37,644 bases of DNA from Pseudomonadota bacterium (GCA_031408275.1 JANNWA010000627.1:1-37644), one strand, 5' to 3'; positions 15,162 to 37,644 are shown, counted from the first letter of the stretch. Notes: generated by a model not told the origin, from the letters alone. Numbers and translations: made by a program.

Positions 15162-15193
15162 TCGTTGAACTATCATGAAGCCTGGCCCGACGA

Positions 15194-15703: not shown

Positions 15704-15780
15704 TCGGGCGCGGCCATCCGGGGCGAATACGGCGATGTTACCATCGACGAAATTTCCGGAACCACCACGGGAGGATCGCC

Positions 15781-16940: not shown

Positions 16941-17011
16941 GACGCTTCCTCCACGTTGGTGCGCGGATTGTACGCCGCCGACGCGCATGCCCATCCCTTA
17001 CAATATCGACC

Positions 17012-21630: not shown

Positions 21631-21738
21631 TGGTGCAACGGCAGATCGGATGGAAGTATCCCGCCCGGGTGCTAAGATTCGGCCGGAGCCATTCCCGCCC
21701 GACACAATCCACGGCCAAGCAACGTCCAAGGAGCCCGC

Positions 21739-21999: not shown

Positions 22000-22027
22000 C
22001 AAGCACGGCTCGCAGGTCCAGGCGCCA

Positions 22028-23386
22028 GTGTCCCGCTTCGATTTCGACCTGTTCACCATCGGCGCCGGATCCGGAGGCGTGCGCGCGAGCCGCTTCTGCG
22101 CCAACTACGGCGCAAAGGTGGCGATCGCAGAAGAGCGCTACTTCGGCGGCACCTGCGTCAACGTGGGATGCATCCCCAAGAAGCTTTTCTCGTACGCCGC
22201 GCACTATCGCGAGGACTTCCACGACGCCGCCGGGTTCGGCTGGACCGTGCCGGAACCCTCCTTCGACTGGCCGACCCTCGTCGCCAACAAGGACAAGGAG
22301 ATCGCGCGGCTCAACGGCGTGTACGAGCGCGTGCTGGCGGGCGCCGGCGTCACCATCCTCAAGCACCGCGCGACGATCGTCGATCCGCACCACGTCGAGT
22401 GCGGTGGCAGGTCCTGGTCGGCAAAGCACATCCTCGTCGCCACAGGTTCATGGCCCACGGTGCCGCACATCCCCGGACACGAGCTCGCGATCACCTCCAA
22501 CGAGGCATTCTTCCTCCCGCAGCTGCCGGAATCGGTCATCGTGGTCGGCGGCGGCTACATAGCGGTGGAGTTCGCTTCGATCTTCAATGGCCTGGGCGTG
22601 CGAACGACGCTCGTCTATCGCGGCAAGCGCCTCCTGCGCGGCTTCGACGCCGAACTCGGCCTGCGGCTGGCCGAGGAAATGACGAAGAAAGGCGTCACGA
22701 TCCGCCTCGAAAGCGACATCGCCACCCTCGAAAAGACCGCTGGCGTAGCGATCGCGGCGACCTTCAGGGACGGCACGCGGAGCGAGGCCGGCGCCGTGAT
22801 GTACGCCACCGGCCGCAAGCCCAACACGCGCAACCTCGGCCTCGAAGCGGCGGGGGTCAACCTCGCCACCGACGGCGCGGTCCAGGTCGACAGGCATTAC
22901 AAGAGCTCGGTCGGGTCGATCCACGCCATCGGCGACGTCACCAACCGCGTGAACCTCACGCCGGTGGCGACCGCGGAAGGCATGGCGCTGGCGAAGACGC
23001 TGTTTCGCAACGAACCGACCGCCCTGGACTACGACAACATCCCGACCGCGATCTTCGCGATCCCCAACGTGGCGACGGTGGGCTTGTCCGAGGAAGCGGC
23101 CAGGGAGCGCGGCCTCGCGGTGGATATCTACAAGACCGGCTTTCGCGCGCTGCGGCACACGCTCTCCGGCAACGAGGAAAAGACCTTCATGAAGCTCGTC
23201 GTGGATACGGCAAGCCAGAAAGTCCTCGGCGCCCACATGATGGGCCCGGACGCGGGCGAGATCATCCAGGGGATCGCCATCGCCCTCAAATGCGGCGCCA
23301 CCAAGGCGCAATTCGATTCGACCATCGGCGTCCATCCGACGGCGGCAGAGGAGTTCGTGACCATGCGCGAGAAAACCACACCATGA
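22028..23386 (+). CDS. gor: Glutathione-disulfide reductase
   Basis: 452 aa, GTG start. FAD motif GAGSGGVRASR, redox-active disulfide GGTCVNVGCIPKK, NAD(P) motif VVGGGYIAVEFA, and C-terminus HPTAAEEFVTM. Confidence 0.9.
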   Translation: MSRFDFDLFTIGAGSGGVRASRFCANYGAKVAIAEERYFGGTCVNVGCIPKKLFSYAAHYREDFHDAAGFGWTVPEPSFDWPTLVANKDKEIARLNGVYERVLAGAGVTILKHRATIVDPHHVECGGRSWSAKHILVATGSWPTVPHIPGHELAITSNEAFFLPQLPESVIVVGGGYIAVEFASIFNGLGVRTTLVYRGKRLLRGFDAELGLRLAEEMTKKGVTIRLESDIATLEKTAGVAIAATFRDGTRSEAGAVMYATGRKPNTRNLGLEAAGVNLATDGAVQVDRHYKSSVGSIHAIGDVTNRVNLTPVATAEGMALAKTLFRNEPTALDYDNIPTAIFAIPNVATVGLSEEAARERGLAVDIYKTGFRALRHTLSGNEEKTFMKLVVDTASQKVLGAHMMGPDAGEIIQGIAIALKCGATKAQFDSTIGVHPTAAEEFVTMREKTTP

Positions 23387-24924
23387 ACGGCGCCGAAAGC
23401 CTCGCCCGCACCCTCCTCGCCTCCGGCGTCGAGGTGTGCTTCGCCAACCCCGGCACCTCGGAGATGCATTTCGTCGCGGCGCTCGATCGCGTGCCGGGAC
23501 TGCGCTGCGTGCTGGGCCTCGCCGAGACCGTGGTCACGGGCTGCGCGGACGGCTATGGGCGCATGACCGGCAAGCCCGCGGCCACCCTGCTGCATTGCGG
23601 ACCGGGCCTGGCCAACGGCATCGCGAACCTGCACAACGCAAAGCGCGCGAACTCGCCCATCGTGAACGTGGTGGGAGACCAGGCGACCTATCACCGGCCT
23701 TACGACGCCCCGCTCACCGCGGACACCGAAGGCCTCGCGCGCGCGGTATCGCACTGGGTGCGCACCTGCGCCACGGCCGACGAAGTGCCGGCCGCGGGCG
23801 CTGCCGCCGTGCAGGCCGCGCGCACCTCGCCGGGCCAGATCGCCACCCTCATCCTGCCGGCGGACACTGCATGGAACGAAAGCACCGGGCCGGCCGCCGC
23901 GCTTGCCGTGCCCGCCCGTCCCGGCGTTGCGCCCGATACGCTCGCCACGGTTGCACGCGCGCTGCGCACCGGCGCGCCCGCAATGCTGGTGCTGGCCGGT
24001 GCCGCACTTTCCGAGGCGGGCCTGCGCGCGGCGCATCGCATCTCGGTCAAGACCGGCGCGAAGCTGCGGGTTCCCACCCAGATCTCGCGCATGGCCCGCG
24101 GCCGCGGACGGCCGCAGATCGACCGGATCCCGTACGCCGTGGACCGCGCGCTCGAAGTGCTCGGCGGGCTCGCGCACCTCGTTCTCGTGGGCGCGAAGCC
24201 GCCGGTGGGTTTCTTTGCCTATCCGGGAAAGCCGAGCGAACTCTGGCCGCGCGACTGCACCGTGCACATGTTCGCGCGCCCCGAGGAAGACGCCGTCGCC
24301 GCGCTCGAAGCCCTGGCCGACGAACTCGGCGCACCCAGGGACACGCCGATCCCCGAAGCACCCCGGGCAACGGTTGCGAGCGGCCCGTTTTCGCCGGATG
24401 CCTTCGCAAGCACGATCGCCGCGCTCATCCCGGAGAACGCCATCGTCGCCGAGGATGCAGTGACCTCCGGGCGCCAGCTGTTCGCACCGACCTTCGCCGC
24501 CGCACCCAATGACTGGATCCAGATCACCGGCGGCGCGATCGGCTGCGGCCTGCCGCTCGCAACCGGCGCCGCGTTTGCCTGCCCGGACAGGAAGACCGTG
24601 TGCCTGCAGTCCGACGGCGGCGGAATGTACACGGTGCAGGCGCTGTGGACCCAGGCCCGCGAGAAGCTCAACGTGGTGAACGTGATCTTCGCCAACCGCA
24701 GCTACCGCATCCTGATGGGCGAACTGACCGCGGTCGGCGCCACGCCGGGCAAGAGCGCGCGCCAGCTGTTCGACCTTGGCCCGCCCGACCTCGACTGGGT
24801 CAAGCTGGCCGGCGGCATGGGCATGGAAGCCGTGCGAGTGGACACGCTGACCGCGTTCGCGGACGTGTTCCGGGCGGCCTGCGCGCGGCCCGGCCCGTTC
24901 CTGATCGAACTGGTCGTGCCGTAG
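23383..24924 (+). CDS. Thiamine-diphosphate-dependent enzyme (acetolactate synthase large-subunit-like)
   Basis: The ATG at 23383 overlaps the gor stop (ATGA). 513 aa. N-terminal Pyr domain ESLARTLLASGVEVCFANPGTSEMHF and C-terminal PP-domain motif GGAIGCGLP...SDGGGMY...N. Confidence 0.8.
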   Translation: MNGAESLARTLLASGVEVCFANPGTSEMHFVAALDRVPGLRCVLGLAETVVTGCADGYGRMTGKPAATLLHCGPGLANGIANLHNAKRANSPIVNVVGDQATYHRPYDAPLTADTEGLARAVSHWVRTCATADEVPAAGAAAVQAARTSPGQIATLILPADTAWNESTGPAAALAVPARPGVAPDTLATVARALRTGAPAMLVLAGAALSEAGLRAAHRISVKTGAKLRVPTQISRMARGRGRPQIDRIPYAVDRALEVLGGLAHLVLVGAKPPVGFFAYPGKPSELWPRDCTVHMFARPEEDAVAALEALADELGAPRDTPIPEAPRATVASGPFSPDAFASTIAALIPENAIVAEDAVTSGRQLFAPTFAAAPNDWIQITGGAIGCGLPLATGAAFACPDRKTVCLQSDGGGMYTVQALWTQAREKLNVVNVIFANRSYRILMGELTAVGATPGKSARQLFDLGPPDLDWVKLAGGMGMEAVRVDTLTAFADVFRAACARPGPFLIELVVP

Positions 24925-25049
24925 GAACGCACCCCGGCCACGGCTGTTTTTACCTGATAAAGTTTGACTTTTATTTTAAAGATCGGCCACAGAAGCCGTT
25001 CTGCAGCCAGTATCGTTACTGGTTTTGAAAAAACGTCGGAGGAGAAATC

Positions 25050-26006
25050 ATGCTGAGGAATGCAATCGCCGGGGCGCTGCTCGCCATCGCTTCGCTCGCC
25101 GCGCAGGCCCAGGGCTACCCGTCCCAGACCGTCAGGATCATCGTCGGGTTCCCGCCCGGCGGGACGACGGACGTGATCGGCCGGCTGGTGGCGCAGGAAC
25201 TCACCGAGTCGCTCGGCAGGGCGGTCGTCGTCGAGAATCGCGCCGGGGCCAGCGGCACCATCGGCGCCGGCATCGCCTCGAAGGCGACGCCCGACGGGCA
25301 TACGCTGGTCCTGGTCCCGAGCACGCACGGCACGGCGCCCGCGCTGTACGCGTCCCTGCCGTACGAAGACAAGGACCTCGTGCCGGCCGCCTTGATAGCG
25401 ACCACGCCCTATGTCCTCGTGGTGCACCCGTCCATGGCGGCGACGAACATGGCGCAACTGCTTGCGTACCTCAAGCAGAACCCCGGCAAGGTCGAATACG
25501 CGTCCTCCAGCCCCGGCACAGCGCAGCACCTGTCAGGAGAACTCCTGCAGCGCATGGCGGGCGTGAGCATCGTCCACATCCCCTACAAGGGCTCGGGCGC
25601 ACTGATGCCCGACCTGCTCTCCGGCCGCGTGCCGATGATGTTCGAGAACATCGCGATCATGACGCCCCACATCAAGAAGGGCGCGCTGCGCCCGATCGCC
25701 GTATCGAGCGTGAAGCGCACGCCCCTGTTGCCGGACGTGCCCACCGTTGCCGAAACAGGCCTCGCGGGCTTCGAAGTGCTGGGCTGGTTTGCGCTGATGG
25801 CCCCGGCCAGGACGCCGCCCGAAATCATCCGGCGGCTCAATGCCGACGTGAACGCGTCGATCGTGCGGCCCGCGATCGTCACGCGCTTCGCGGAACTCGG
25901 CGCCGAACCCCTGGGCGGCTCGCCCGACCAGGCGGCCGCGTTCATCCGAGCCGAGCAGGACAAGTGGGGCAAGATCATCCGCGACGCGGGTATCAAGCAG
26001 CAGTAA
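25050..26006 (+). CDS. Bug family / TctC substrate-binding protein (second copy)
   Basis: 318 aa. Signal peptide, then YPSQTVRIIVGFPPGGTTD and PYKGSGALMPDLLSG. SD GGAGGAG lies upstream. Confidence 0.85.
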   Translation: MLRNAIAGALLAIASLAAQAQGYPSQTVRIIVGFPPGGTTDVIGRLVAQELTESLGRAVVVENRAGASGTIGAGIASKATPDGHTLVLVPSTHGTAPALYASLPYEDKDLVPAALIATTPYVLVVHPSMAATNMAQLLAYLKQNPGKVEYASSSPGTAQHLSGELLQRMAGVSIVHIPYKGSGALMPDLLSGRVPMMFENIAIMTPHIKKGALRPIAVSSVKRTPLLPDVPTVAETGLAGFEVLGWFALMAPARTPPEIIRRLNADVNASIVRPAIVTRFAELGAEPLGGSPDQAAAFIRAEQDKWGKIIRDAGIKQQ

Positions 26007-26016
26007 GGCGCGATGC

Positions 26017-26763
26017 TCAGGCCGCCAGCGCGCGCACGATCAGGGAGATGCCGCTGGCCGCCAGCATGAGGCCGATCGCGCGGATCAGCGTGTCGCGCGA
26101 GAAGCGCGCAAATGCTTTCGACGCGACCCACAGACCCGCGAAGGACGCAGGCAAAGCGGCCAGCGCATACAGCCAAGGCGTGGCCGACTGCAGAGGGCCC
26201 GCAATGAAGAAGGCGACTACACGCAGGGAAATGCTGAACATCGTGCAGACGCCCAGCGTCGAGCGGTACTGCTCCTTGCTGAGCGGCCGGCGCGACAGGT
26301 AGATCGCGTACGGCGGGCCGCCGGCACCGAACAGGGTGCTCGTGACGCCCCCGGCCAGCCCGGCCACTGGCGCCCATGCCCGGCCTATGGTCCCCACTGC
26401 GCCGGCGCGAACGATGTTGGAGATCGCGATCGAAAGGACGAAAACGCCGAGCGCCGCCATCGATACGGCACGCGGCAGGTTCACCAGGATCGTCATCCCC
26501 ACAACCGTGCCAAGGACGACTCCCGGGAGGATCCGCTTCCACTCCGGCCCCTGCGCGCTCTTCGGGTCGTGCATCCCGATGCGCCAGGCGCTGGTGCAGT
26601 CGAGCACCGAAAACATCGCCAGCGCGAACGGCAGCGGGACCAGGTGCGCGGCGAGCGGGATCGTGAGCAGGGCGGAACCAAAGCCCGTCACCCCGAAGAT
26701 GAAAGCGCCGCCGAACGCGATCGCCGCAAGCGCGGCCAGCGTGGCGTAATCGGCGGCGGTCAA
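26017..26763 (-). CDS. TauE/SafE (DUF81) family sulfite/anion exporter-like membrane protein
   Basis: The proposed TTG start at 26763 overlaps the upstream stop (TTGA) and gives about 248 aa with 7-8 TM segments and the Gly-rich motifs GVTGFGSALL and LFGAGGPP. The ORF-track upstream extension overlaps the SpeE-like gene in another frame. Confidence 0.7.
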   Translation of the reverse strand: MTAADYATLAALAAIAFGGAFIFGVTGFGSALLTIPLAAHLVPLPFALAMFSVLDCTSAWRIGMHDPKSAQGPEWKRILPGVVLGTVVGMTILVNLPRAVSMAALGVFVLSIAISNIVRAGAVGTIGRAWAPVAGLAGGVTSTLFGAGGPPYAIYLSRRPLSKEQYRSTLGVCTMFSISLRVVAFFIAGPLQSATPWLYALAALPASFAGLWVASKAFARFSRDTLIRAIGLMLAASGISLIVRALAA

Positions 26764-27545
26764 TCCGGTTCCGGCGAGAGCAGGAGCGCCGCCCGCGTCC
26801 AGCGGTTCATCTTGCGCAGGCCCGGGACGCACCGCTCGAAGGGCAGCCCGAGCTTTTGCTCGAGCTTCGCGGCGCAGCGCCGCATCTCGTCCCAGGTAAT
26901 CGCCTCCGGCGCGCCCTTGAGCGCGAACACGATCACGTTGCCGTCCTCGCGCGCCTCGAGGCACACGACACACCCGGAGAATGCCGCCTCGATCCGCTGC
27001 AGGTACCGGTCGAAGCGCCGGTCGTGCCCGAAGAAATTGACCACGAGCACGCCGGGCGCGCGCAACGCGCGGTGGGCCGCGGCATAGAACTCCTCGCTGA
27101 CCAGGTCCGGCACCTGCGCGCCGTCGTCGAACCCGTCGACAAACAGCAGGTCGCAGGACGCGTCGGCCGCATGCACGGCCTTCGCGCCGTCCCCGAGTTC
27201 GATGCGCAGCCTCGCACAGTCGTCCGGAACGTTGAACAGCGACCGCGCCGCGGTGATGACCGCCGGGTTGAGTTCCACTACGCGCGTGCGCACACCCGGC
27301 ATGCGGCGATAGATGAACTTCGGGATCGACCCGCCCCCCAGTCCCACCATCAGGCATTCCCGCGGCCGGGGATGGAAGAGGAGGAACGCCATCATGGTCC
27401 TGGTGTAATCGAGCTCGAGGTCGTCGGGGGCGTCGATGCGCATCGCGCTCTGTATGTGCTCCCCGCCCAGGTGGAGGGACCGCACCCCGTCCTCTTCGCT
27501 CACCACCACTTCGGATTGGGGTTGCGCGCGCCGGCCCCGCTTCAT
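26760..27545 (-). CDS. Spermidine synthase-like SAM-dependent transferase
   Basis: 261 aa. Motifs MVGLGGGS, VELNP.V, LFVDGFD and the following EFY resemble spermidine-synthase-fold proteins. Confidence 0.65.
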   Translation of the reverse strand: MKRGRRAQPQSEVVVSEEDGVRSLHLGGEHIQSAMRIDAPDDLELDYTRTMMAFLLFHPRPRECLMVGLGGGSIPKFIYRRMPGVRTRVVELNPAVITAARSLFNVPDDCARLRIELGDGAKAVHAADASCDLLFVDGFDDGAQVPDLVSEEFYAAAHRALRAPGVLVVNFFGHDRRFDRYLQRIEAAFSGCVVCLEAREDGNVIVFALKGAPEAITWDEMRRCAAKLEQKLGLPFERCVPGLRKMNRWTRAALLLSPEPD

Positions 27546-27638
27546 CGGGCGCGCTGCCTGGCGGAATTCTCTCTCATGGCGCCAGTATAGCGGCGGGGCG
27601 CGGCCATCCGGCGGACCGGCGCGAACCGGCTGCGCCCA

Positions 27639-28856
27639 TCAGCGTGCGCCCTGCTGTTTACCGCGCACCAGCAGCACGCCTGCCGCGCCGGCGAACGAAA
27701 GCACGGCTGCGCCGACGATGGGCGCGTCGTAACTGCCCAGGCGGTCGAACCCGTATCCCGCGAGGGGCGGCCCGATCAGGGTGCCGATCCCGGGCGCGGT
27801 GTAGAGCCAGCCGATGATGGCCGACACTGCCCGGCCACCGAAGATATCCATCACCACCGCCGGCAGCGTGGCGACGAAGCCGCCGTAGAACAAGCCTATC
27901 CCGACCGAAACGGCGGCCAGCGCCCACAGGCTCTGCGACTGCCACCACAGAAGGAAGCAGGCGCCGAGGCCCGCATACATCAGCGCGAGGGAGCGCAACC
28001 GCCCCATGCGATCGGCCAGCCCGCCGATGCTGAATCGTCCGAGCAGGCTTCCCAGCCCGATCAGGCTGACCAGCATCACGCCGGCCGAATCCGGGTGGCC
28101 CAGGTCGGTCGCATAGGGCGCGAGGTGCACCATGGGAACGAAGACCCCGATCGTCGGCAGGAATAACGAGGCGTACAGGATCCAGAAATCCCTCGACCCG
28201 AGCGCCTGCGAAAGCGTCGATCCCGCCAGTGGCTGGGTCGCAGCCGCGGGATCCGGCGTTTCCCCGGTGCGCAGCTCGCGGCGGGCGGGATTGTTGTCGA
28301 CGAACCATGCCGCAACACCAGCCAGCACCAGGGCAAACGCGGCGAGCACCAGGTAGGCGCCCCGCCAGCCGTATAACCCGATCCACCACGCGGCCAGCGG
28401 CGGCACGATGAGGTTGCCGGCGCCGATGCCGGACACGGCGATACCCGTGGCGAACGCGCGCCTGCGCATGAACCAGGGCTGCACCGCGCCTACCGAAGGC
28501 ACGTAGGTCAGCCCCACGCCCACGCCGATGCCGATGCTGTAGGTGACATAGAGCGCGGCAAGCGAAGGGGCGAAACTCGCCCCCGCCAGGCCCAGCGCGA
28601 GCGCGGCGGCGCCGGCCAGCGCCACCCGCCGCGGGCCGAAACGGTCGGCCAGCATCCCGGCCGGCGCGCCGAGCATGAAATACAGGAACGCGCACAAGGA
28701 GAACACGAGCGAGACATGGCCGCGCGGCGCGCCGAACTCGGCCTGGAAGGCCTTGAAGAACGCAGCAAAGGTGTACACGGCGCCGAAGCCCGTGAACATC
28801 AGCGTGAACGCTGCCGCTACGACCACCCAGCCCTGGTAAGCGTGGCGCCGGCTCAA
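27639..28856 (-). CDS. MFS transporter (oxalate/formate antiporter-like)
   Basis: 405 aa, about 12 TM. TTG start. GMLADRFGPRR matches MFS signature motif A. Confidence 0.8.
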   Translation of the reverse strand: MSRRHAYQGWVVVAAAFTLMFTGFGAVYTFAAFFKAFQAEFGAPRGHVSLVFSLCAFLYFMLGAPAGMLADRFGPRRVALAGAAALALGLAGASFAPSLAALYVTYSIGIGVGVGLTYVPSVGAVQPWFMRRRAFATGIAVSGIGAGNLIVPPLAAWWIGLYGWRGAYLVLAAFALVLAGVAAWFVDNNPARRELRTGETPDPAAATQPLAGSTLSQALGSRDFWILYASLFLPTIGVFVPMVHLAPYATDLGHPDSAGVMLVSLIGLGSLLGRFSIGGLADRMGRLRSLALMYAGLGACFLLWWQSQSLWALAAVSVGIGLFYGGFVATLPAVVMDIFGGRAVSAIIGWLYTAPGIGTLIGPPLAGYGFDRLGSYDAPIVGAAVLSFAGAAGVLLVRGKQQGAR

Positions 28857-28863
28857 GGGCCCC

Positions 28864-29982
28864 TCAGGCCAGCGCGCCGCGCGCCGTGATCGGCCACAGC
28901 GCCTCCACGACCCCGCCGCGCATGCACACGTACCAGTCGTACAGGTTCACCGTCGGGTCGCAGTGTCCGGGCACCAGCAACAGCTTTTCCCCGAGGGCCG
29001 GCGCGGTCGAGCCGGGTTGCACGTCGATCACGCCATGCTCGTCCGAGGCGCGCGCATAGGTCAGGCCGGGACGGCCCCACACAGTGGGCAACCCGGAGTC
29101 GACACTGGAGGCCTTGAGGCCGGCGTCGAGGACCGCGCGCCCCGGCACGGGCGTGCTCATGACGCAAGCGAGCACGAACAGGGAATGCTCGAACCGCGGC
29201 AAAGGCGGCGCCCATTCGTTTTTCGCGTAGTCGGCGTCCATGAAGATGTAGGACCCCGGCTGGAGTTCGTCGTAGACACCGCTCGCGGCCTCGAACATGA
29301 AGCTGCCGCTGCCCGCACCCGTGACGATCGGGCAAGCAATGCCGCTGGAAGCGATCAACTCGCGCGTGGTGCGTGCCGCCTCGATCGCTATCCCGATCCG
29401 CTCCTTGCGTTCCGTCATCGTGCGCACGTGCTGCGCGGAGCCCTGGTAGGCCTGCAGGCCCGCAAAACGCAGCCCGGGAGCACTCGATATGCGCCGCGCG
29501 ACTTCGAGCGCCGGGGCGCCCGGCGCGACCCCGCAACGGTGCGCGCCGACATCGATCTCGACGTAGACGTCGAGTTGCACGCCTTCGTTGCGCGCGGCCG
29601 CGCCGAGGGCGTCCACCTGGAGGACGTGGTCCACGCAGATGCCGATGCGGGCCCGCTTCGCAAGGCGCGCCAGGCGCGCGAGTTTCGAAGCCCCGACGAC
29701 TTCGTTCGACACCAGCACGTCGCCCACGCCCCCGTCGACCATCGCCTCGGCCTCGGACACCTTCTGGCAGCACACGCCGATCGCGCCTGCGGCGATCTGG
29801 CGCAGGGCGATCTCCGGGCATTTGTGCGTCTTGGCGTGCGCGCGGACGCGAACGCTGCGCCCGGCCAGGGCCTCGTTCAGCCGCCTGATGTTCGCCTCGA
29901 ACGCATCCAGGTCGAGGATCAACGCCGGGGTGTCGACCTCCTCGAGCCGCTGGCCCAGCCGCGCTGGAAGGATCGCGGTCAA
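28864..29982 (-). CDS. DSD1-family PLP enzyme (D-serine dehydratase / D-threonine aldolase-like, alanine racemase N-domain fold)
   Basis: The proposed TTG start at 29982 overlaps the upstream stop (TTGA). Motifs TPALILDLDAFE.N, PLP-Lys region RAHAKTHKCPE, and C-terminus LVPGHCDPTVNLYD. Confidence 0.8.
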   Translation of the reverse strand: MTAILPARLGQRLEEVDTPALILDLDAFEANIRRLNEALAGRSVRVRAHAKTHKCPEIALRQIAAGAIGVCCQKVSEAEAMVDGGVGDVLVSNEVVGASKLARLARLAKRARIGICVDHVLQVDALGAAARNEGVQLDVYVEIDVGAHRCGVAPGAPALEVARRISSAPGLRFAGLQAYQGSAQHVRTMTERKERIGIAIEAARTTRELIASSGIACPIVTGAGSGSFMFEAASGVYDELQPGSYIFMDADYAKNEWAPPLPRFEHSLFVLACVMSTPVPGRAVLDAGLKASSVDSGLPTVWGRPGLTYARASDEHGVIDVQPGSTAPALGEKLLLVPGHCDPTVNLYDWYVCMRGGVVEALWPITARGALA

Positions 29983-31154
29983 GCGGCGACCCCTTTCCCG
30001 CGCAGGGCGAGCCAGACGGCCGCAACCGCGACCACGGCGAGCAGGGGCAGCGCAAGCAGGTTTACCGTATCCCATCCGGCCCTCGACACGAGCAGGCCCG
30101 AGGTCAGCGACGAGACCACCATCATCGCGAAGATGCACATGTCGTTGGCGCCCTGGGCCTTGGCCTTCTCCTCGGGACGGTAGGTCTCGGTGAGCAATGC
30201 CGTCCCGCCGATGTACATGAAATTCCACCCGACGCCGACAAGCACCAGGGAAAGCCAGAAGTGCGCGACGTCCACCCCGTTCAGCGCCACCGCGATGCAT
30301 GCCACGTTCAGGGCTGCGCCGAGCAGGATGATGTTCAGCACGCCGAAACGCTTGATCAGCGCTCCGGCGAACAGGGACGGCGCGAACATGGCGATGACGT
30401 GCGACGAGATGACGAACGCCGCATCGCCGAAGGGGTGGCCGCACATGTCCATCGCAATCGGCGTCGCGGTCATCAGCAGGTTCATCACGCCGTAGCTGAT
30501 CGCACCGGACAGGACGGCCACGACGAACTTCGGCTGCTGCGCGATCTTCCACAAGCTGCGGCCGCCGCCCGCCTGCTCGGCCGCGGTGGGGTTCGGGATG
30601 CGCGTTGCGGACAGCAGCGCAATGGTGGCCATGCAGAAGACGATGAGAAAGAGATAGGCGCCGAGGAAACGATCCGCGAACGCGTCCACCGAGTAGCGGC
30701 TCATGCCGGGCCCGAGGATCCCGCCCACCAGCCCCCCGGCAAGCACCAGCGAAATCGCGCGCGCCTTGTAGCTGGCCGGCGATACGTCCGCCGCGGCGAA
30801 CCGGTAGTACTGGCCCGTTGCGTTTGACGCCCCGAAGATCAGTGTCCCCAGGCACAGCAGCCAGAAATCGTGCAGCCCGATCGCCAGGGCGCAGACCAGC
30901 GCCGCGACGATCCCCGTTGCCGCTCCGGCCATCAGTCCCTGGGTGCGGCCGACCCGTTTCATGTAGAGGGAGGCCGGCAGGGTGGAGATCGCGCCCCCGA
31001 GCACCCAGGTCGTCACCGGCAGGGTGCCAAGCGCGGGGTTGGTGGCAAGCGACATTCCCGCCAGCCCGTTGATCGAGGCAAGCGTGGAACTGTTGCTGAA
31101 CAGCATCGCCTGGCAGGCGGCCAGCAAAGCGACGTTACGGCGGGTACTGTCCAT
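29979..31154 (-). CDS. MFS transporter
   Basis: The internal ATG at 31154 gives 391 aa, about 12 TM. LYMKRVGRTQG is motif-A-like. The longer ORF-track N-terminus is Arg-rich and implausible. Confidence 0.8.
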   Translation of the reverse strand: MDSTRRNVALLAACQAMLFSNSSTLASINGLAGMSLATNPALGTLPVTTWVLGGAISTLPASLYMKRVGRTQGLMAGAATGIVAALVCALAIGLHDFWLLCLGTLIFGASNATGQYYRFAAADVSPASYKARAISLVLAGGLVGGILGPGMSRYSVDAFADRFLGAYLFLIVFCMATIALLSATRIPNPTAAEQAGGGRSLWKIAQQPKFVVAVLSGAISYGVMNLLMTATPIAMDMCGHPFGDAAFVISSHVIAMFAPSLFAGALIKRFGVLNIILLGAALNVACIAVALNGVDVAHFWLSLVLVGVGWNFMYIGGTALLTETYRPEEKAKAQGANDMCIFAMMVVSSLTSGLLVSRAGWDTVNLLALPLLAVVAVAAVWLALRGKGVAA

Positions 31155-31219
31155 ATGTACAGTATAATCCAGGGTAACCCGGCCCACGGGCCGCGAGGCC
31201 CATTCTAACCACCGCCCCC

Positions 31220-32353
31220 ATGCCAAACGACCTGCGGAGCGAAATGCATTCGATCCCCGTGCATGCGGCGCGCGCCGATGCGGCCGACAAGTCGCGCGGC
31301 GCGACCGACGCACGCCAGGGCCGCTTCGGGACGCAGGCGCGCGAATCCTTTGACGACGGCTGGACGCACGACGACGAGCCTTCGCCCGCACTTGAAACCC
31401 GGGTCACCGAGGAACGCGCGCGCTCGATCATCTCGACCAATGAATCCCCCGACGTTCCGTTCAGCCAGTCGATCAATCCCTACCGCGGCTGCGAGCACGG
31501 CTGCGTCTACTGCTATGCGCGCCCGAGCCACTCCTACCTGGAACTCTCCCCGGGCCTGGATTTCGAAACGAAGCTGTACGCCAAGACAAACGCGGTCGAG
31601 CTGCTGCGCACCGAACTCGGCCGCCGGGGCTACGTCCCCAGCCCGGTCGCACTGGGCGCGAATACCGACTGCTACCAGCCCGTGGAGCGGCGCTACCGGC
31701 TGACGCGGGGCATAGTCGAGCTGCTCGCCGAATGCGATCACCCGCTGACGATAGTCACCAAGTCGGCCCTCGTGGAGAGGGACCTCGACCTGCTCGCGCC
31801 GATGGCGAGGAAAAACCTGGTCCGTGCGTTCGTCTCGATCGGGACGCTGGACCGCACGCTGGCACGGCGGCTCGAGCCGCGCGCGGCCAGCCCGCAGCGC
31901 CGCCTCGACACACTGCGCGCGCTGTCGGCGGCGGGCATACCCTGCGGGGTGATGGTCGCACCGGTCATCCCGGCGCTGTCGGACAAGAGCATCGAGGAAG
32001 TCCTCGAGGCCGCGCAGGCTGCAGGCGCGCAGAGCGCCGCCTATATCATCATGCGCCTGCCGAACGAACTCAAAGGGCTGTTCCGCGAGTGGCTCGAAGT
32101 CCACTACCCCTTGCGCGCCGAACACGTCATGAGCGTGGTCCGGCAGCTGCGCGGCGGGAAAGACAACGACCCGCGATTCGGGGAGCGCATGACAGGGACC
32201 GGCCTCTTTGCCGACCTGATCGGCCGGCGCTTTGCGATCGCATGCAAACGGCTCGGGCTGAACGGCCGGGGCGAGGGAGGCCGCGAGCCGCCGAAGCTGG
32301 ATACGAAACTGTTCCGCCCGCCATCGCCCGCAGGCCAATTGAGCCTGTTTTGA
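31220..32353 (+). CDS. PA0069-family radical SAM protein
   Basis: 377 aa. INPYRGCEHGCVYCYARPSH carries the Cx3Cx2C cluster motif, followed by LSPGLDFETKL. The start is uncertain (alternative ATG at 31244). Confidence 0.85.
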   Translation: MPNDLRSEMHSIPVHAARADAADKSRGATDARQGRFGTQARESFDDGWTHDDEPSPALETRVTEERARSIISTNESPDVPFSQSINPYRGCEHGCVYCYARPSHSYLELSPGLDFETKLYAKTNAVELLRTELGRRGYVPSPVALGANTDCYQPVERRYRLTRGIVELLAECDHPLTIVTKSALVERDLDLLAPMARKNLVRAFVSIGTLDRTLARRLEPRAASPQRRLDTLRALSAAGIPCGVMVAPVIPALSDKSIEEVLEAAQAAGAQSAAYIIMRLPNELKGLFREWLEVHYPLRAEHVMSVVRQLRGGKDNDPRFGERMTGTGLFADLIGRRFAIACKRLGLNGRGEGGREPPKLDTKLFRPPSPAGQLSLF

Positions 32354-32394
32354 CAGCGTTCTTTGATATATATATTACTTTTAGTATTGTGACC

Positions 32395-32415
32395 GGCTGG
32401 AAACCCGCTCCAGCC
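32395..32415. terminator. Hairpin 1 between the convergent radical SAM gene and the adaptor operon
   Basis: GGCTGGA-aacccgc-TCCAGCC (7-bp stem), flanked by an AT-rich tract (32361-32390) that includes TATATATAT. Confidence 0.4.
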
Positions 32416-32418
32416 CTT

Positions 32419-32436
32419 GATTCCTTGAAAGGAATC
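32419..32436. terminator. Hairpin 2 between the convergent radical SAM gene and the adaptor operon
   Basis: GATTCCT-tgaa-AGGAATC (7-bp stem), followed by CTCAAAATTCTC. It lies 17 nt from the stop of the 32453-33805 gene. Confidence 0.4.
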
Positions 32437-32452
32437 CTCAAAATTCTCAGCT

Positions 32453-33805
32453 CTAGACGCCGAAGCTCTTGCGCAGGAACAGGATGGGCTTGCGCAGGAG
32501 GTAATACCCAAGGGAAACCTCCTCCGCGTAGACCTTTGCCGTTCCGCGCAAACCGATCCGCGGCAACTGGCCCGGCGCAAGCTGCGCCTTGACGACATAG
32601 GCGAGGCTGTTGTCCGGCATGGTGATCGTTTCGTAGCTGGTCTGCACGATCTTCGCCTTGAGCGGCGATAGCGGGTCGACATTCAGGAACACGGAAACTT
32701 CGCTGCCGAGGTCCAACTGGACGGCGTCCTCGGGCGGGACAAATACGGTCACCTCCACCAGCGAGGGATCGGCGATCATCATGATGCGTTCGCCGGGCTG
32801 CACCGGGCGGCCACGCCACTCCTCGGAATCGGAAAAGATCGCGAGCCCGCCCTGCGGCGCCGAAATGCTGTAGCGGTCGAGCATTTCGGACAGGAACGCC
32901 ACTTCAGCCACTTTTTCGCGCACTCGCGCTTCCAGGACGTTGAGCTCACCCTTGCTCGCATCGTCAGAGAAGGACTTGTTAATGGCGCGCTGCAGGTCCG
33001 CCTTGGCGATGTCGAGGGCCTTGACCGAGACCGCGAGCTTGTTGCGGGTGGTGGTGTCGTTGAGCACGACCAGGGGTTGGTCGGCCGCCACGATCTGGTT
33101 CGGTTGGACCAGAATCGAGTCGACGACCCCGTCCACGGGGGCAGTGATCGGAAACGGGCGCACGGGGGTGATTTCCGCCTGGGCCAGCGCGCTCAGCCGG
33201 ACGGGCAGGAAGGACAGCAAAGCGACTGCAAGCGCTGCCCCCATGATCAGGCGCTGGGTGGATGTCCGGCGCAGCCAGCGCTGCACGGGCCGGTAATCGC
33301 GGCGCCATGCCCAAAGCGCAAACCCGGTGGCCGACCCTATCCACTGCGCGATGGCGCGCTCGACCTCTTCGAACGGCTCGTCGCGCGCGAAGAGCAGCCC
33401 GCCAAGTACTATGCCTTCCGGGCTCGTCAGTGCGCAGTGGAGCAGCTGGTCGGGGGCCCATTCGGCCCCGTCCTGCGAAAGCGAATCGGGCAGGTCGGCG
33501 AGGGCCGCTGCGACCACGGGCTGGCCCGGCGCTTCGGAAAAGTGCACGGCCGCACGCGCCAGCCACTGCATGTAAGGCGCCTCGGGCGTGATCTCCGCCA
33601 GGCCGGATACCGCTTCCACCGACACCTGCGAGCGCAGGTCGTATTGCCAGATGACCGCCTGGTCGAAGCGCAATGCGCTGTAACCTTCGTTCACGGCCGC
33701 GAACGCAAGTTCGCGCAACGTCTTGCACGCCTGCAGCTTTCGCTGGAACTCCAGCAATTCTGCGGCGATATTGGTGCTTTTCGGCCCGGTTGCCGGTTCG
33801 GTCAC
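32453..33805 (-). CDS. HlyD-family periplasmic adaptor with a cytoplasmic N-terminal domain of about 185 aa (T1SS-type topology)
   Basis: 450 aa. The GTG start overlaps the upstream stop (GTGA). Single TM LIMGAALAVALLSFLPV (about residues 186-202). Lipoyl-like halves ITAPVDGVVDSILVQPNQIVAADQPLVVL and ISAPQGGLAIFS...GRPVQPGERIMMI flank a short coiled coil. Beta-barrel C-terminus. Confidence 0.8.
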   Translation of the reverse strand: MTEPATGPKSTNIAAELLEFQRKLQACKTLRELAFAAVNEGYSALRFDQAVIWQYDLRSQVSVEAVSGLAEITPEAPYMQWLARAAVHFSEAPGQPVVAAALADLPDSLSQDGAEWAPDQLLHCALTSPEGIVLGGLLFARDEPFEEVERAIAQWIGSATGFALWAWRRDYRPVQRWLRRTSTQRLIMGAALAVALLSFLPVRLSALAQAEITPVRPFPITAPVDGVVDSILVQPNQIVAADQPLVVLNDTTTRNKLAVSVKALDIAKADLQRAINKSFSDDASKGELNVLEARVREKVAEVAFLSEMLDRYSISAPQGGLAIFSDSEEWRGRPVQPGERIMMIADPSLVEVTVFVPPEDAVQLDLGSEVSVFLNVDPLSPLKAKIVQTSYETITMPDNSLAYVVKAQLAPGQLPRIGLRGTAKVYAEEVSLGYYLLRKPILFLRKSFGV

Positions 33806-34692
33806 GGTTTGGGACGATCAGGAAACACGGCCGTGCCCACCATGCCGGGAAGGAGCCCCTGGGTGGAGCCCTCGAACTTCGCCTCGAGCTCCAGCGACTG
33901 GCTCACGCCTTCTACACGCGCGTTCAGCTTGGACACGCGCGCGCGGTAGGTCCGCCCGTCCTGGGAGGTCCTTACCGAGAACTGCGAGCCGGGCCTGATC
34001 CAGCCGAGCCAGGCCGCCGGCACGTAAAGCTGCGCCTTAAGCGAGCCCGGATTGACGAGGTCGAGCAACGGCTGTCCCAGTGACACGCTTTCGGCCAGCT
34101 TGGCCTTGACCTTGACGAGGCGCCCGGTGAACGGCGCGACAACCTTGCAATAGGCGATCTGCGACTCGCGCAGCGTCACCTGGCTCCTCGCCTTGTCTGC
34201 CGCCGAAGCGGCGACGGTGACTTCGAGCTCCCCCGCCGCACCAAGCGCCTGCAGGCGCAGCTTGGTGAGGTGAGTCTCCCTGGCGCCCCGGTACTCGGCC
34301 TCGACGGACTGGAGCTGCGCCTCCTGCTCCTCGCAGTCGAACTCCAGGATGACCGCCTTCGCGGCGACGTTGTCGCCGAGCCCGTAATTGATCTTCTTGA
34401 TCTTCCCGGCCATCTGGCTTGAAAGGGTCGTCTCATCTCCGGACGTGACGAGTACGGAGATATCGCGATCCTCCAGCGTGGTGAACTGGTCGAGCAGCGC
34501 CCCCATCCCGATGCGGCTCGACGAGGCGGCCGGGGCCGCGCCCCCGGGAGCCGGGGACTGGGCCCTCGCCGCAGGTTTCGCCTGCCCGCCCGCAGCAGGA
34601 ACCTGGGCACCGGATTCGAACGGCATGATAACGATCAACGCCGGGAGTGCCACCAGGAAGGCTGCGACCCTATTGCGCAAGGCGGACTCCAC
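33802..34692 (-). CDS. HlyD/efflux-adaptor family protein (anchor-only N-terminus)
   Basis: The proposed GTG start at 34692 gives an N-terminal anchor AAFLVALPALIVIM. Alternatives are TTG at 34695 and the longest ORF start at 34746. Ala/Pro-rich linker, then SSQMAGKIKKINYGLGDNVAAKAVILEFD ... VVAPFTGRLVKVKAKLAESVSLGQPLLDL. The gene overlaps the TolC-like 3' end. Confidence 0.75.
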   Translation of the reverse strand: MESALRNRVAAFLVALPALIVIMPFESGAQVPAAGGQAKPAARAQSPAPGGAAPAASSSRIGMGALLDQFTTLEDRDISVLVTSGDETTLSSQMAGKIKKINYGLGDNVAAKAVILEFDCEEQEAQLQSVEAEYRGARETHLTKLRLQALGAAGELEVTVAASAADKARSQVTLRESQIAYCKVVAPFTGRLVKVKAKLAESVSLGQPLLDLVNPGSLKAQLYVPAAWLGWIRPGSQFSVRTSQDGRTYRARVSKLNARVEGVSQSLELEAKFEGSTQGLLPGMVGTAVFPDRPKP

Positions 34693-36802
34693 CAAACTCG
34701 GCTCTTGAAATCCGTTCGACTGCGGGCCAGGCCAGAGCCTGCGCAATCCGCAGGCTGAGGGATTCCGAGTTTTCAGCCGGGGGCTCCGGCTGCACAGCGG
34801 CCGCGGCCCCGCTTGCAGTGCTGCGGGCGAGCCTCAGGTTGGAGTCGCCCCAAGGCGCAGACAGCTTGTTCTGGGCGACGGCGCGACCCGACTGGAGCCT
34901 CGCGATCGGGCCGACAGCCCGATAGGCGGCCCCTTCGCCGAGGGTGCTCCACTGCTGCGCGTCCACCGGCTCGCTGAGCGTGGTCTTGAATTCCGAGGAA
35001 AACCTGACGCTGCCCGACGCGTCATCCACCAGCGCCACCCTGACGCGCGCCGGCCGCCCACCGTCGCGGGGCGGTTCGAGCAACACCGCCGAGTTGATGG
35101 TCAGTTTTCCCTCGCCGGGCTCGGCGACCTTGATCTTGGACAGCTCGAGAATTCGCACGAGTGCGGCGCGAAACTCCTTGGCCTGGGCATCGGGCACGCC
35201 GTCGATCCGGCCGATCATCACCGGGAGTTCGTTCGGCGGCGCCTTGGGGCCGAAGTTCTCGTTCTCCCAACCGACCATCCTTGCCTGCAGCTCCCCGGCA
35301 AGCGACGCGGTTTCATGGCTGTCGACTTCGGGCGGAAGCGCATCCAGCCCCACCGAGTTGTAGATTTTCCCCAGCGACGCTTCGAGGTAGGCGTAGGTCA
35401 GGTCGCGGTTGACTTTGCTCAGCAGGTAGCGCGCCTTCGCGCGGATCAGCTCGAACTCCGTATCGATGCCCACTTCGGCGCTTGAGGAGAGATAGCCGAC
35501 GATCTGCTCGTCATCCCTGGTCGCCAGGTCCCACACGCCGAACTCGTACGCGAGCAGCGAGTACCGGACTGCGGCAAGCCTGGTCTGGGTCATGACCGCC
35601 ATGCCCATCGCAAGGCGCCGGGTCTCGTCCAGCTTGCTCTGCGCCTCGGCCGAGCGGTTGACGGCCGGCAGCGAGAACGCCTTGACGAGGTTGAAGGCGA
35701 CGTTAACGCCGATCGACATCCATGCTCTGTTCACGAGGAACTTGTTGCTGTCGTAATTGCTCGCCACGTCCAGGTTGAGGTTCGGGAACAGCGCGAGAAC
35801 GGCCCGTCGCGCTTCGTCCTCGTTCACGCGGGTTTTGTAGGCTTCCTCGCCCAGTTCCGGCCGGTTGCGCAGCGCGACCGCCTCGAGCGTTTCCATGCGC
35901 GTCTTGAGCTCGAGGGTGGCTGCCGGGAAGCGGCTGGGCGGATCGACCTGCACCTGCGTTCCCGGCGGGACGTTGAGCAATGCCGCGAGTTCCACGCGCG
36001 CCTGGCCGAGGTCTACCCTGCGCAGGCTGATCTGCTGCTCGAGGTCGAGGAGCCCCCGGCGCAACGAGGCAGTCTGCATGGGCGGCAGCAGCTTCCGGTT
36101 CTCGATCACCCTGGATTTCTCGACGGCCAGGGCGATCTCCTCCTGGAGTTCCTCGATCTGCGGCATGAGCCGCTGCGCGGCCTCGCTCCTCCACCAGGCC
36201 AGGCGAACGTCCTGCACGAGGTTCTGGAGCGCCTTGCGCCGGCGCTCTTCGGTGATCAGGCTCTGGTCGGCCAGCTGCCTCGCGCGATAGTAGCTCAGGC
36301 CGAAGTCCAGCACGCTCCAGGTGAACGCCACGCTGGTGGTGTCCCGCGTCCGCTCCTGCGATGCCGACGGGTTGAGGGCCACTTGGCCGCTCGGCGAAAA
36401 CCCGAAGCCGAACGAATCGTTGCTGCGCGACGTATAGCCGGCGTTGGCGGTGAGCTTCGGGAGCATGTCGAACTTTGCGACATCGAGCTGGCCGAGCGAC
36501 ACCGCCTGCTCCATCATGCGGACCCGGTACTCCATCTGGTACTTGATAGACCGCGCAGTCGCCTCGTACAGGGTCACCGGCCGGTTGAGGGGTTCCTGGC
36601 CTGCAAACAGCTTGGCCTCCGCCTCCGCGGCGACGCTCTCCCGCTGGGCGGCATCCAACGGCACCGGGACCACCGAACAACCGGAGGCCAGCGATAGTGC
36701 GCAACCGAGGAGCAGGCGCCAGCGATCGAAGTTGATTGGTTTTCCTGACGGCACAAGTACACATCCGGGATGTTGATCTGATCGTACCCCTTGCGGGGCC
36801 AT
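34670..36802 (-). CDS. TolC/OMF-family outer-membrane lipoprotein with a C-terminal extension of about 224 aa
   Basis: 710 aa. Lipobox-like LLLGC / SLASGC at residues 30-42. Two OEP-type repeats span about residues 75-486 (YEATARSIKYQ..., LDFGLSYYRARQ, LALFPNLNLDVASNYDSN, LIRAKARYL). Residues 487-710 have no TolC counterpart. The start is uncertain because the ATG at 36802 has no SD. Confidence 0.8.
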   Translation of the reverse strand: MAPQGVRSDQHPGCVLVPSGKPINFDRWRLLLGCALSLASGCSVVPVPLDAAQRESVAAEAEAKLFAGQEPLNRPVTLYEATARSIKYQMEYRVRMMEQAVSLGQLDVAKFDMLPKLTANAGYTSRSNDSFGFGFSPSGQVALNPSASQERTRDTTSVAFTWSVLDFGLSYYRARQLADQSLITEERRRKALQNLVQDVRLAWWRSEAAQRLMPQIEELQEEIALAVEKSRVIENRKLLPPMQTASLRRGLLDLEQQISLRRVDLGQARVELAALLNVPPGTQVQVDPPSRFPAATLELKTRMETLEAVALRNRPELGEEAYKTRVNEDEARRAVLALFPNLNLDVASNYDSNKFLVNRAWMSIGVNVAFNLVKAFSLPAVNRSAEAQSKLDETRRLAMGMAVMTQTRLAAVRYSLLAYEFGVWDLATRDDEQIVGYLSSSAEVGIDTEFELIRAKARYLLSKVNRDLTYAYLEASLGKIYNSVGLDALPPEVDSHETASLAGELQARMVGWENENFGPKAPPNELPVMIGRIDGVPDAQAKEFRAALVRILELSKIKVAEPGEGKLTINSAVLLEPPRDGGRPARVRVALVDDASGSVRFSSEFKTTLSEPVDAQQWSTLGEGAAYRAVGPIARLQSGRAVAQNKLSAPWGDSNLRLARSTASGAAAAVQPEPPAENSESLSLRIAQALAWPAVERISRAEFGGVRLAQ

Positions 36803-36833
36803 TTTAACTTGTTATTTAAAGTGTCCTGAATCA

Positions 36834-36841
36834 CCCCCCCC
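36834..36841. repeat. C8 (G8 on the coding strand) homopolymer in the 44-nt spacer between the Ig-domain gene and the TolC-like gene
   Basis: Read directly: tcaCCCCCCCCggg at 36834-36841. The adjacent stretch 36803-36830 is AT-rich. Confidence 0.9.
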
Positions 36842-36846
36842 GGGAG

Positions 36847-37644
36847 CTAGAGGTTGGTGCGGCCCGGCCGCGTCTCTTTCGTCCCCAGGATCTTGGCAAG
36901 GAGGGGATCCCCCGCCGCCTTCGCTGCCCGAACCTGCTCCCCGAAAGGCGCCGCTCCGGCCCGCGTGGGCTTCGCCTTCTCCAGTTTGCCCTTGATCGGG
37001 GCATCGCCCGCATCCGCGAGGGGCGCTTCAACAGCATCCTCGTCTTCGGTTTCATCGTCGGGATCGGCCCAGGGTCGGACCGGTGCGGATACGCCCGACG
37101 CGTCCACGCGGGCGGGCTCGGCATCCCCGGCCTTCACGCCCAGTTCCAGCGTGAAGGCGATGTTCGCTTCGCGGCCGTCTTCGTCCCTGGCGCTGAGCAC
37201 TATCTCAAGGGAAGTCCGTGCGCCGCCCGGAGGCGTGCCCCGGAAAGTCCCGGTAAGTGAGTCGAATTGCAGCCAGGCGGGCAAGGGGCTTCCGTCGGCA
37301 CTCCGCGCCTCGAGCCTGACGATCGAGGCCGGATCCGTATGGCCGAACGCGTCCCGCGGAATCTCGAACACGCCGTCGCCGACCCCGCTGAGCACCCCGT
37401 GGAACACGAACAGCCTGTGCTCGGCGAGCGCTCCGCCGTCGCTTCCTGATACGCGGAGCAGATCCTCGGTGGCAACCCGCGCGACCGGAAATCCACGATC
37501 GATCGCCTGCGATGAACCCAGTGCGGCGGCCTGCAGCGCCGCGAGGTCGCCCTGGGCCATCTTGAGGACCTCGGCGACGCCATCCGCTCCGCGACCGGAT
37601 GCGCCTTGCGGCCCCGGCGCCCCGCCGGCGGCGGGCTCGATATC
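36847..37644 (-). CDS. Dystroglycan-type cadherin-like / putative Ig (He_PIG-like) domain protein; frame open to the window edge, so possibly the C-terminus of a larger protein
   Basis: The frame has no stop from 37644 down to TAG at 36847-36849. The first in-window ATG is at 37560 (237 aa). Domain signature FEIPRDAFGHTDPASIVRLEARSADGSPLPAWLQFDSLTGTFRGTPPGG.RTSLEIVLSARDEDGREANIAFTLEL. Acidic stretch DPDDETEDEDA. No N-terminal signal peptide if it starts at 37560. Confidence 0.6.
   Translation of the reverse strand, partial: DIEPAAGGAPGPQGASGRGADGVAEVLKMAQGDLAALQAAALGSSQAIDRGFPVARVATEDLLRVSGSDGGALAEHRLFVFHGVLSGVGDGVFEIPRDAFGHTDPASIVRLEARSADGSPLPAWLQFDSLTGTFRGTPPGGARTSLEIVLSARDEDGREANIAFTLELGVKAGDAEPARVDASGVSAPVRPWADPDDETEDEDAVEAPLADAGDAPIKGKLEKAKPTRAGAAPFGEQVRAAKAAGDPLLAKILGTKETRPGRTNL

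Follow-up and report, generated by a model that had tools for sequence, protein, structure and literature searches.

A conserved locus linking giant adhesin genes to a TolC-family channel and three HlyD-type adaptors, one fused to an M50 protease domain, as a candidate ABC-independent export or anchoring machine

The 37,644-nt stretch of DNA analysed here (the window) is an entire contig from a Pseudomonadota bacterium (GCA_031408275.1 JANNWA010000627.1:1-37644), and its right end was found to be the distal part of a conserved five-gene locus, comprising its three final genes and the last 265 codons of the gene before them. In relatives the complete locus encodes a giant adhesin-like protein, a TolC-family outer-membrane factor (OMF) and three adaptors of the HlyD type, of which one has a GAF-like head (the GAF-adaptor) and one is fused to a Peptidase_M50 domain (M50-HlyD). 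We consider it probable that these genes encode a dedicated, leader-dependent machine for the export or anchoring of giant adhesins, working independently of an ATP-binding cassette (ABC) transporter. A further-reaching proposal, which we make tentatively and with somewhat less than even confidence, is that they define a distinct and widespread secretion pathway, built from a TolC-family channel and a hetero-oligomeric ring of three adaptors (one with an active S2P-type protease and one with a GAF sensor), recognising an LEPR-XLL leader and having no energiser of the ABC, resistance-nodulation-division (RND) or major facilitator superfamily (MFS) type. The features of the window are as follows.

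36847 to 37644, minus strand: 3' end of the giant adhesin-like gene (265 codons and stop), with a He_PIG domain and a frame open at the contig end.
34670 to 36802, minus strand: TolC-family OMF, 710 aa, with OEP matches.
33802 to 34746, minus strand: small periplasmic adaptor (membrane fusion protein), up to 314 aa, with HlyD_3, HlyD_D23 and RND_mfp matches.
32453 to 33805, minus strand: GAF-adaptor with a transmembrane segment, 450 aa, with Pfam HlyD_3 and HlyD_D23 matches.
About 32395 to 32436, unstranded: two neighbouring stem-loops, seen by folding, between the convergent GAF-adaptor and radical-SAM genes.

An initial annotation, made from the sequence of the window, had described four co-directional minus-strand genes at 32453-37644, encoding an Ig-domain protein, an extended OMF and two different adaptors. 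All four open reading frames (ORFs) were present and ran in one direction at the right end of the window in the ORF listing, and the domains guessed for them (OEP, HlyD_3, HlyD_D23 and He_PIG) were recovered by Pfam and NCBIfam searches. The Ig-domain ORF had been described as having no visible signal peptide; direct reading of its frame found no stop from the listed ORF start at 37560 to base 37644, such that the frame is open at the edge of the window and the contig breaks inside a giant gene. The ORF is thus the C-terminal fragment of a giant protein rather than a small separate protein, and its missing signal peptide is therefore uninformative. The fragment carries a He_PIG Ig-like domain (about 37144-37362; Pfam 4.4e-08, 33.9 bits against a cut-off of 24), the acidic tract that had also been noted in it (ADPDDETEDEDAVEAPLADAGD, about 36979-37068) and a C-terminal motif (GAAPFGEQVRAAKAAGDPLLAKILG, about 36883-36957). 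Exact look-up of the window proteins returned only short identical contigs of 6.2 and 2.5 kb.

Homologous C-termini were found in related contigs and loci, which are labelled here with L-numbers, on ORFs with DUF4347, Cadherin_4, Big_9, Cadherin, LapA and He_PIG domains (L008, L014 and L074); in L008 the Cadherin_4, Big_9 and He_PIG repeats of the upstream gene extend over more than 2,300 residues. The giant proteins of relatives are about 3,000-5,000 aa long. In L014/L041 the gene is about 10.2 kb (about 3,400 aa), and in ENA scaffold_984 it extends from 3140 to 17855 (about 4,900 aa, spanning a 100-N gap) and encodes DUF4347, PA14, Cadherin_3/4, Big_9, BNR, Cadherin, LapA and three He_PIG domains; no RTX repeats were found in the scaffold_984 protein (no HemolysinCabind match). 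Most related contigs begin inside the homologous giant gene (L003-L006, L010, L013, L015 and L016 from position 1). The long repetitive gene systematically breaks short-read assemblies, so that the machine and its M50 component come to lie on separate contigs and the system is easily missed.

The upstream end of the locus was seen in several close relatives. Scaffold_984 is collinear with window positions 21046-37501 at 77-80% nucleotide identity, with a GAF-adaptor 85% identical to that of the window, and its gene order is M50-HlyD (724 aa, 760-2934), giant gene, OMF, adaptor and GAF-adaptor, followed by the same radical-SAM, MFS and D-serine-dehydratase-like genes as in the window. L041/L014 (73% identity) share this layout; in L041 a gap of 145 nt separates the end of a 726-aa M50-HlyD (4448-6628) from the giant-gene start, and unrelated metabolic genes lie upstream of M50-HlyD. 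The same upstream arrangement was observed in L054/L078. In the metagenome-assembled genome (MAG) CBDIHI01, contig_2 (L077) ends with M50-HlyD and the LEPR/DUF4347 start of the giant gene, and contig_7 (L005) begins inside the giant gene and continues with the OMF, adaptor and GAF-adaptor genes. M50-HlyD therefore lies just upstream of the giant gene in the clade of the window, and in other lineages it is the last gene of the operon. In Pectobacterium/Brenneria the giant gene is followed by those for the OMF (606 aa), the small adaptor (252 aa), the big-headed adaptor (451 aa, 37-38% identical to the 450-aa protein of the window) and, finally, M50-HlyD (709 aa), in which Peptidase_M50 occupies the N-terminal half and HlyD_3/HlyD_D23 the C-terminal half. 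By tblastn, M50-HlyD was not found in the window or in the 10-kb flanks of close Burkholderiales relatives. From the sequences of the relatives with a complete locus, we infer that the genome of the window carries M50-HlyD and the rest of the giant gene beyond base 37644.

These loci altered how the lack of an inner-membrane component is to be understood. Because M50-HlyD lies beyond the contig end in relatives, the apparent absence of such a component merely reflects where the window ends, and the big-headed adaptor, once suggested to be the inner-membrane component itself, need not fill that role. The claim that the operon has no inner-membrane energiser stood in so far as no conserved ABC, RND or MFS partner accompanies it in relatives, and it has to be qualified by the polytopic M50-HlyD fusion in their operons. 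Neither was an ABC or RND gene, which the initial annotation held would make this a conventional system, located upstream in any relative with a complete locus, and no transporter gene follows downstream in the operon. Gene order is conserved within the clade and the gene set is conserved across taxa. The architecture is both non-canonical and conserved.

The extent of this conservation was established by tblastn, in which all five families were seen to co-occur in Paraburkholderia, Bordetella, Trinickia, Pandoraea, Pectobacterium, Brenneria, three Coxiellaceae, two other gammaproteobacterial MAGs and Desulfuromusa, and only in part in an Ignavibacteria MAG whose contig ends. Their spread takes in Beta-, Gamma- and Alphaproteobacteria, Desulfobacterota and other phyla, over which the order varies (the machine being downstream of, divergent from or split around the cargo gene) and the gene set stays constant. 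All-against-all clustering of ORFs of at least 90 aa from 23 representative loci kept only the five module families across taxa, the remaining clusters being antisense shadows of module genes or clade-specific neighbours; no conserved RND, MFS or ABC partner, small precursor gene or other export gene emerged from this clustering. M50-HlyD motifs, which have at least 590 matches in 185,579 species genomes, served as the sole seed for a second, independent sample of 80 genome loci. A GAF-adaptor was present within 10 kb in 65 of these loci and a recognisable OMF in 49, the exceptions being mostly short contigs or split arrangements. Taxa in this sample include Pseudomonas, Variovorax, Comamonas, Chromobacterium, Azospirillum, Phytobacter, Methylomonas, Desulfopila, Zetaproteobacteria and Scalindua. 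The locus L120, from a MAG labelled Candidatus Paceibacteria (candidate phyla radiation), where no outer membrane is expected, has the full M50-HlyD/GAF-adaptor module and a DUF4347 match; this bin is probably mis-assigned.

An unlikely explanation of the locus is a conventional type 1 secretion system (T1SS) with its ABC exporter elsewhere in the genome, in which the additional adaptors and the M50 fusion would be accessories for adhesin retention or release, as LapG/LapD are for LapA. It would account for a giant repeat adhesin as cargo, with its LapA domain, cadherin-like repeats, acidic C-terminal region and conserved C-terminal motif; the OMF and HlyD-type adaptors are T1SS parts, and T1SS components can be unlinked. 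However, neither the window nor about 60 module loci, taken with 10 kb on either side, yielded a Walker A...LSGGQ pair, and the ABC signature occurred in only 10 of the 80 M50-seeded loci, at inconsistent distances and strands. The T1SS HlyD model TIGR01843 gave the 450-aa protein 16.2 bits against a cut-off of 208.65, and was not listed for the 314-aa protein. The lack of RTX repeats in the scaffold_984 giant protein also argues against this explanation, as do the N-terminal position of the signal that is conserved across phyla and the fact that the module already has a polytopic membrane component.

The M50 domain of that component was examined in relatives, where Peptidase_M50 matched with 31.7-35 bits (cut-off 27.2). 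In scaffold_984 it has HELGH219 and NASPFMRFDG313 amid about 7-8 hydrophobic segments, and the motifs HExxH and N-x-S-P-x-M-R-F-D-G-Y were found to be invariant in 12-13 M50-HlyD sequences that share only 31-39% identity. Since both motifs are invariant across such diverse sequences, the M50 domain is judged to be probably an active protease. Its closest NCBIfam relative is the daptide_HExxH leader-removing intramembrane metalloprotease (146-157 bits), followed by YydH/LiaK (32-38 bits), both scores lying below the family cut-offs; the similarity to these proteases of ribosomally synthesised and post-translationally modified peptides (RiPPs) takes in the cytoplasmic N-terminal region.

This kinship, and database labels such as "multidrug resistance efflux pump", "HlyD family efflux transporter periplasmic adaptor" and "putative peptide zinc metalloprotease", could be read to mean that the genes encode a pump for efflux or export of a small molecule or peptide, adjoining the giant gene by chance, with the M50 domain processing a RiPP-like small peptide that leaves via the duct; an MFS gene also lies 1.1 kb downstream in the window. 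We regard this as very improbable, as the link to a giant LEPR/DUF4347 gene persists across phyla through changes of order (upstream, downstream or divergent), no small precursor gene or transporter is conserved, and the MFS gene, separated from the module by a radical-SAM gene on the opposite strand, is missing from the Pectobacterium, Paraburkholderia and other module loci.

The GAF-adaptor matched HlyD_3 (3.3e-16) and HlyD_D23 (6.1e-10) in its C-terminal 250 residues, with the first 200 unmatched by Pfam. A hydrophobicity scan placed a single transmembrane segment at about residues 184-210 (bases about 33176-33256), accompanied by a long helix, after a cytoplasmic domain of about 180 aa, in agreement with the distinction drawn initially between an anchor-only adaptor and one with a big cytoplasmic head. 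AlphaFold2 modelled the full protein with a pLDDT of 76.6 and the N-terminal domain alone with a pLDDT of 86.6 and a pTM of 0.82. Foldseek matched the periplasmic part to MacA, EmrA and MexA (E = 1e-10 to 1e-14; MacA 4.5e-14), identifying it as a MacA/EmrA/MexA-like adaptor with an alpha-hairpin, and matched the cytoplasmic head (residues about 13-165, bases about 33311-33769) to the GAF domains of phytochromes and sensor kinases with probability 1.0 (3hcy_B, TMt 0.81, rmsd 3.1). By sequence the head had 0 PDB matches and no Pfam match, so that fold comparison alone identified it; in the model, the cytoplasmic head of the 450-aa protein is a GAF fold. The Desulfuromusa orthologue was recognised as Pfam GAF by sequence (3.5e-09). 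A profile of the head gathered 1,015 cluster representatives at 50% identity; of the full-length members, nearly all measure about 440-480 aa and carry the head at the N-terminus.

The small adaptor, which has an N-terminal hydrophobic anchor or signal only (hydrophobicity scan), matched HlyD_3 (2.2e-16), HlyD_D23 (2.6e-08) and RND_mfp (95.2 bits against a cut-off of 94.9), and is retained by the modules of different taxa. A recent duplication giving rise to the three adaptors was ruled out, their periplasmic parts not being significant pairwise by BLASTP (best pair 25% identical, E = 0.004); on these comparisons they are old, distinct partners rather than duplicates.

The OMF gave an OEP match in two stretches (1.4e-20, 74.4 bits against a cut-off of 22), and over residues 44-511 it shares 33-36% identity with the OMFs encoded in the Pectobacterium, Paraburkholderia and Bordetella modules. 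Its N-terminal hydrophobic segment ends in LASGC, a possible lipobox. The extension that had been noted was located at the C-terminus, where about 200 aa (residues about 500-710, window 34670-35300) were matched by no Pfam or NCBIfam family; members of the close clade share the extension, and the 606-aa Pectobacterium OMF either lacks it or differs in this part. In the Desulfuromusa locus the OMF (L067:4485-6806, minus strand) has an OmpA peptidoglycan-binding domain ahead of OEP.

The giant proteins carry conserved motifs at both ends. In 15 of 16 loci the ORF begins with a Lys/Arg-rich stretch followed by LE(P/Q)R-x-x-(F/Y)-D-(A/G)-(S/A), and then by about 80-120 variable residues before DUF4347 (match about 1e-52 in relatives). 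The leader motif corresponds to NCBIfam NF012209 (LEPR-8K, "LEPR-XLL domain-containing protein"; cut-off 17 bits), which passes in L067 (26.6 bits) and L061 (18.8 bits) and reaches only 12.6 bits in L043. No hydrophobic Sec-type or Tat-type signal was found at the giant-protein N-termini of relatives. At the other end, a motif (G/A)(K/A)-x-(S/A/P)-(F/L)-x-(E/A/Q)-Q-(V/F/L), some 30-45 residues ahead of the stop and a candidate signal, anchor or plug, is common to Burkholderiales, Paraburkholderia/Bordetella and Pectobacterium/Brenneria (the window and L023, L029, L034 and L043-L053). From Pectobacterium to the window the proteins end in a He_PIG domain, then a linker, which in the window is acidic, and lastly this motif. 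The initial annotation had described the Ig-domain protein as type-1-like cargo or a cell-surface partner; its conserved N-terminal LEPR-XLL signal sets the family apart from classical type 1 cargo, although there is a conserved C-terminal motif as well. In the Desulfuromusa giant protein (L067, end at about 14164) a hydrophobic helix and acidic tail replace the SFxEQ motif, and in L070 (Zoogloea) DUF4347 stands right at the N-terminus, without an LEPR leader.

Features of both OMF and cargo bear on whether the complex might be an envelope-spanning tether rather than a conduit, with the giant protein reaching the surface by another route and the OMF-adaptor-M50 assembly anchoring it, or releasing it through regulated proteolysis. 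Additional OMF domains in some lineages (OmpA in Desulfuromusa and the C-terminal extension in the window) and the terminal hydrophobic helix of the L067 protein are in keeping with a tether; M50 proteases are known for regulated intramembrane cleavage, and GAF heads usually sense ligands. Weighed against these, the giant proteins lack a Sec or Tat-type signal, no other export genes are conserved nearby, and three adaptors with an OMF are standard duct anatomy, so that we consider a pure tether quite improbable.

From the observed gene content, co-occurrence, motif conservation and folds, we infer how a dedicated adhesin machine might be assembled, where cleavage might occur, in which direction transport might run and what might drive it. 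The three different adaptors would assemble as one hetero-oligomeric ring or duct under the OMF trimer, by analogy with TriA and TriB, which form a hetero-oligomeric ring in the two-adaptor system TriABC-OpmH. The GAF head and the N-terminal domain of M50-HlyD, the latter being common to leader-removing RiPP proteases, may recognise the basic LEPR leader, which the M50 active site may cleave or hold, and the giant protein would then be threaded out, or anchored, through the duct without a dedicated ABC ATPase. As a candidate source of energy, extracellular Ca2+-dependent folding of the cadherin-like domains might act as a ratchet; extracellular folding has been proposed as a ratchet for RTX proteins. 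Proton-motive force or an unlinked ATPase are other candidates.

The proposed machine fits no known tripartite class, being without an ABC, RND or MFS partner and also failing TIGR01843, and it was compared with four kinds of known system. Type 1 secretion of LapA (LapA/LapBCE/LapG/LapD), SiiE and MpIBP likewise handles giant repeat adhesins with cadherin/Ig-like and LapA domains, uses a duct of TolC-family OMF and HlyD-type adaptor encoded next to the cargo gene, and has an N-terminal cargo element that is handled by a protease (probably so here). It differs in that the present locus has neither an ABC exporter nor RTX repeats, encodes three adaptors unrelated to one another where type 1 systems have one, has an adaptor-fused intramembrane M50 domain in place of the periplasmic LapG, and shows an N-terminal LEPR-XLL motif with DUF4347 as the conserved cargo signal. 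Peptidase-containing ABC transporters (colicin V CvaAB-TolC and those of bacteriocins) similarly fuse a protease domain to the inner-membrane component, work with an adaptor and TolC, and export cargo with an N-terminal leader that, as presumably here, is removed during export; their protease is a C39 cysteine peptidase and their cargo a peptide, whereas the protease here is a zinc M50/HExxH enzyme, there is no ABC ATPase, and the cargo has thousands of residues. TriABC-OpmH of Pseudomonas aeruginosa shares the use of more than one non-identical adaptor per OMF, implying a hetero-oligomeric adaptor ring, but TriC is an RND transporter that pumps triclosan, while the present locus has no RND protein, three adaptors (two with cytoplasmic or membrane domains) and a giant protein as neighbour. 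The RiPP HExxH proteases (daptide NF041824 and YydH/LiaK NF058609), whose known role is leader removal, are the nearest M50 relatives and share the N-terminal cytoplasmic region and both catalytic motifs; the scores obtained here fall well short of the cut-offs of both families (300 and 225 bits, respectively), and the M50 domain is here fused to a periplasmic adaptor domain, in an OMF operon without RiPP genes nearby. No description of the system was found in the searchable full-text literature (subscription literature being outside its scope), where LEPR-XLL and DUF4347 occurred as passing annotations only. The building blocks (OMF, adaptor, S2P-type protease and GAF) are thus known and the assembled system is apparently undescribed.

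Several observations weigh against a dedicated, ABC-independent export or anchoring machine. M50-HlyD and the N-terminus of the giant gene lie outside the window, and their presence is deduced from relatives at 73-86% identity. The giant protein is proposed as the substrate of the machine through synteny. Leader recognition is complicated by the closest relatives having LEQR rather than LEPR, the LEQR variant of the closest relative, L041, giving no NF012209 match. An LEPR/DUF4347 giant gene occurs without the module within 10 kb in L056 (Granulosicoccaceae), and an LEPR-type N-terminus with DUF4347 on a giant ORF occurs in L071, a Mycobacterium sp. MAG bin, where an OMF is not expected. L059 and L069, from Actinomycetota-labelled MAGs, are giant-repeat matches. 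The LEPR leader may serve more than one export route, or bins of the type of L071, L059, L069, L056 and L070 may be mis-assigned. As to energy, we know of no precedent for a protein duct that has neither an ATPase nor a known transporter coupled to the proton-motive force, and to our knowledge every characterised TolC-dependent system has an ABC, RND or MFS motor; E. coli TolC is encoded away from hlyBD, making an unlinked ABC or other energiser conceivable. Databases, moreover, name the module proteins efflux-pump adaptors.

The window genes are tightly packed. A spacer of 44 nt separates the stop of the Ig-domain ORF (36847) from the OMF ATG (36802), and the small-adaptor and GAF-adaptor genes meet in a GTGA overlap (GTG at 33805, TGA at 33802), both as originally described. 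The 23-nt overlap reported between OMF and small adaptor holds only with a GTG start at 34692, the overlap being 11 nt with TTG 34680 and 77 nt with the longest ORF. TTG 34680 has GGAG 6 nt upstream and is also the start called on the identical contig L001; the small adaptor likely starts either there (292 aa) or at GTG 34692. The two hairpins, which had been said to close the unit, exist at about 32395-32436 (GAUUCCU-loop-AGGAAUC and GGCUGGAG-loop-UUUCCAGCC). Their paired fold is a modest signal (-22.1 kcal/mol, z = -1.57), with no U-tract or T-run after the two hairpins, and an intrinsic-terminator scan passed them over for that reason; the transcription unit probably ends with them. In a contig that is otherwise 65-70% GC, positions about 32370-32380 hold a short AT-rich stretch (tatatatat). 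Convergent with the operon end is a radical-SAM gene (31220-32353, plus strand), beyond which lies an MFS transporter gene (about 29979-31391, minus strand). Both neighbours also occur in scaffold_984 and L075. As they are not found in more distant module loci, they were judged unrelated to the module. The MFS gene (about 30-31.4 kb) was considered as an EmrB-like partner and ruled out, being behind the opposite-strand radical-SAM gene and not conserved with the module.

An OMF-adaptor machine whose sole polytopic part is a protease-adaptor fusion either hides an unknown form of energy coupling or has giant adhesins ratcheted out without a motor. LEPR-XLL/DUF4347 cargo genes, encoding thousands of residues, are among the largest bacterial genes, and as they break assemblies the system is under-annotated. 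If true, this reading would correct the widespread "multidrug efflux" labelling of module genes. The module is found in culturable bacteria, including Pectobacterium, Paraburkholderia, Pseudomonas, Variovorax, Azospirillum and Chromobacterium, making the proposal directly testable.

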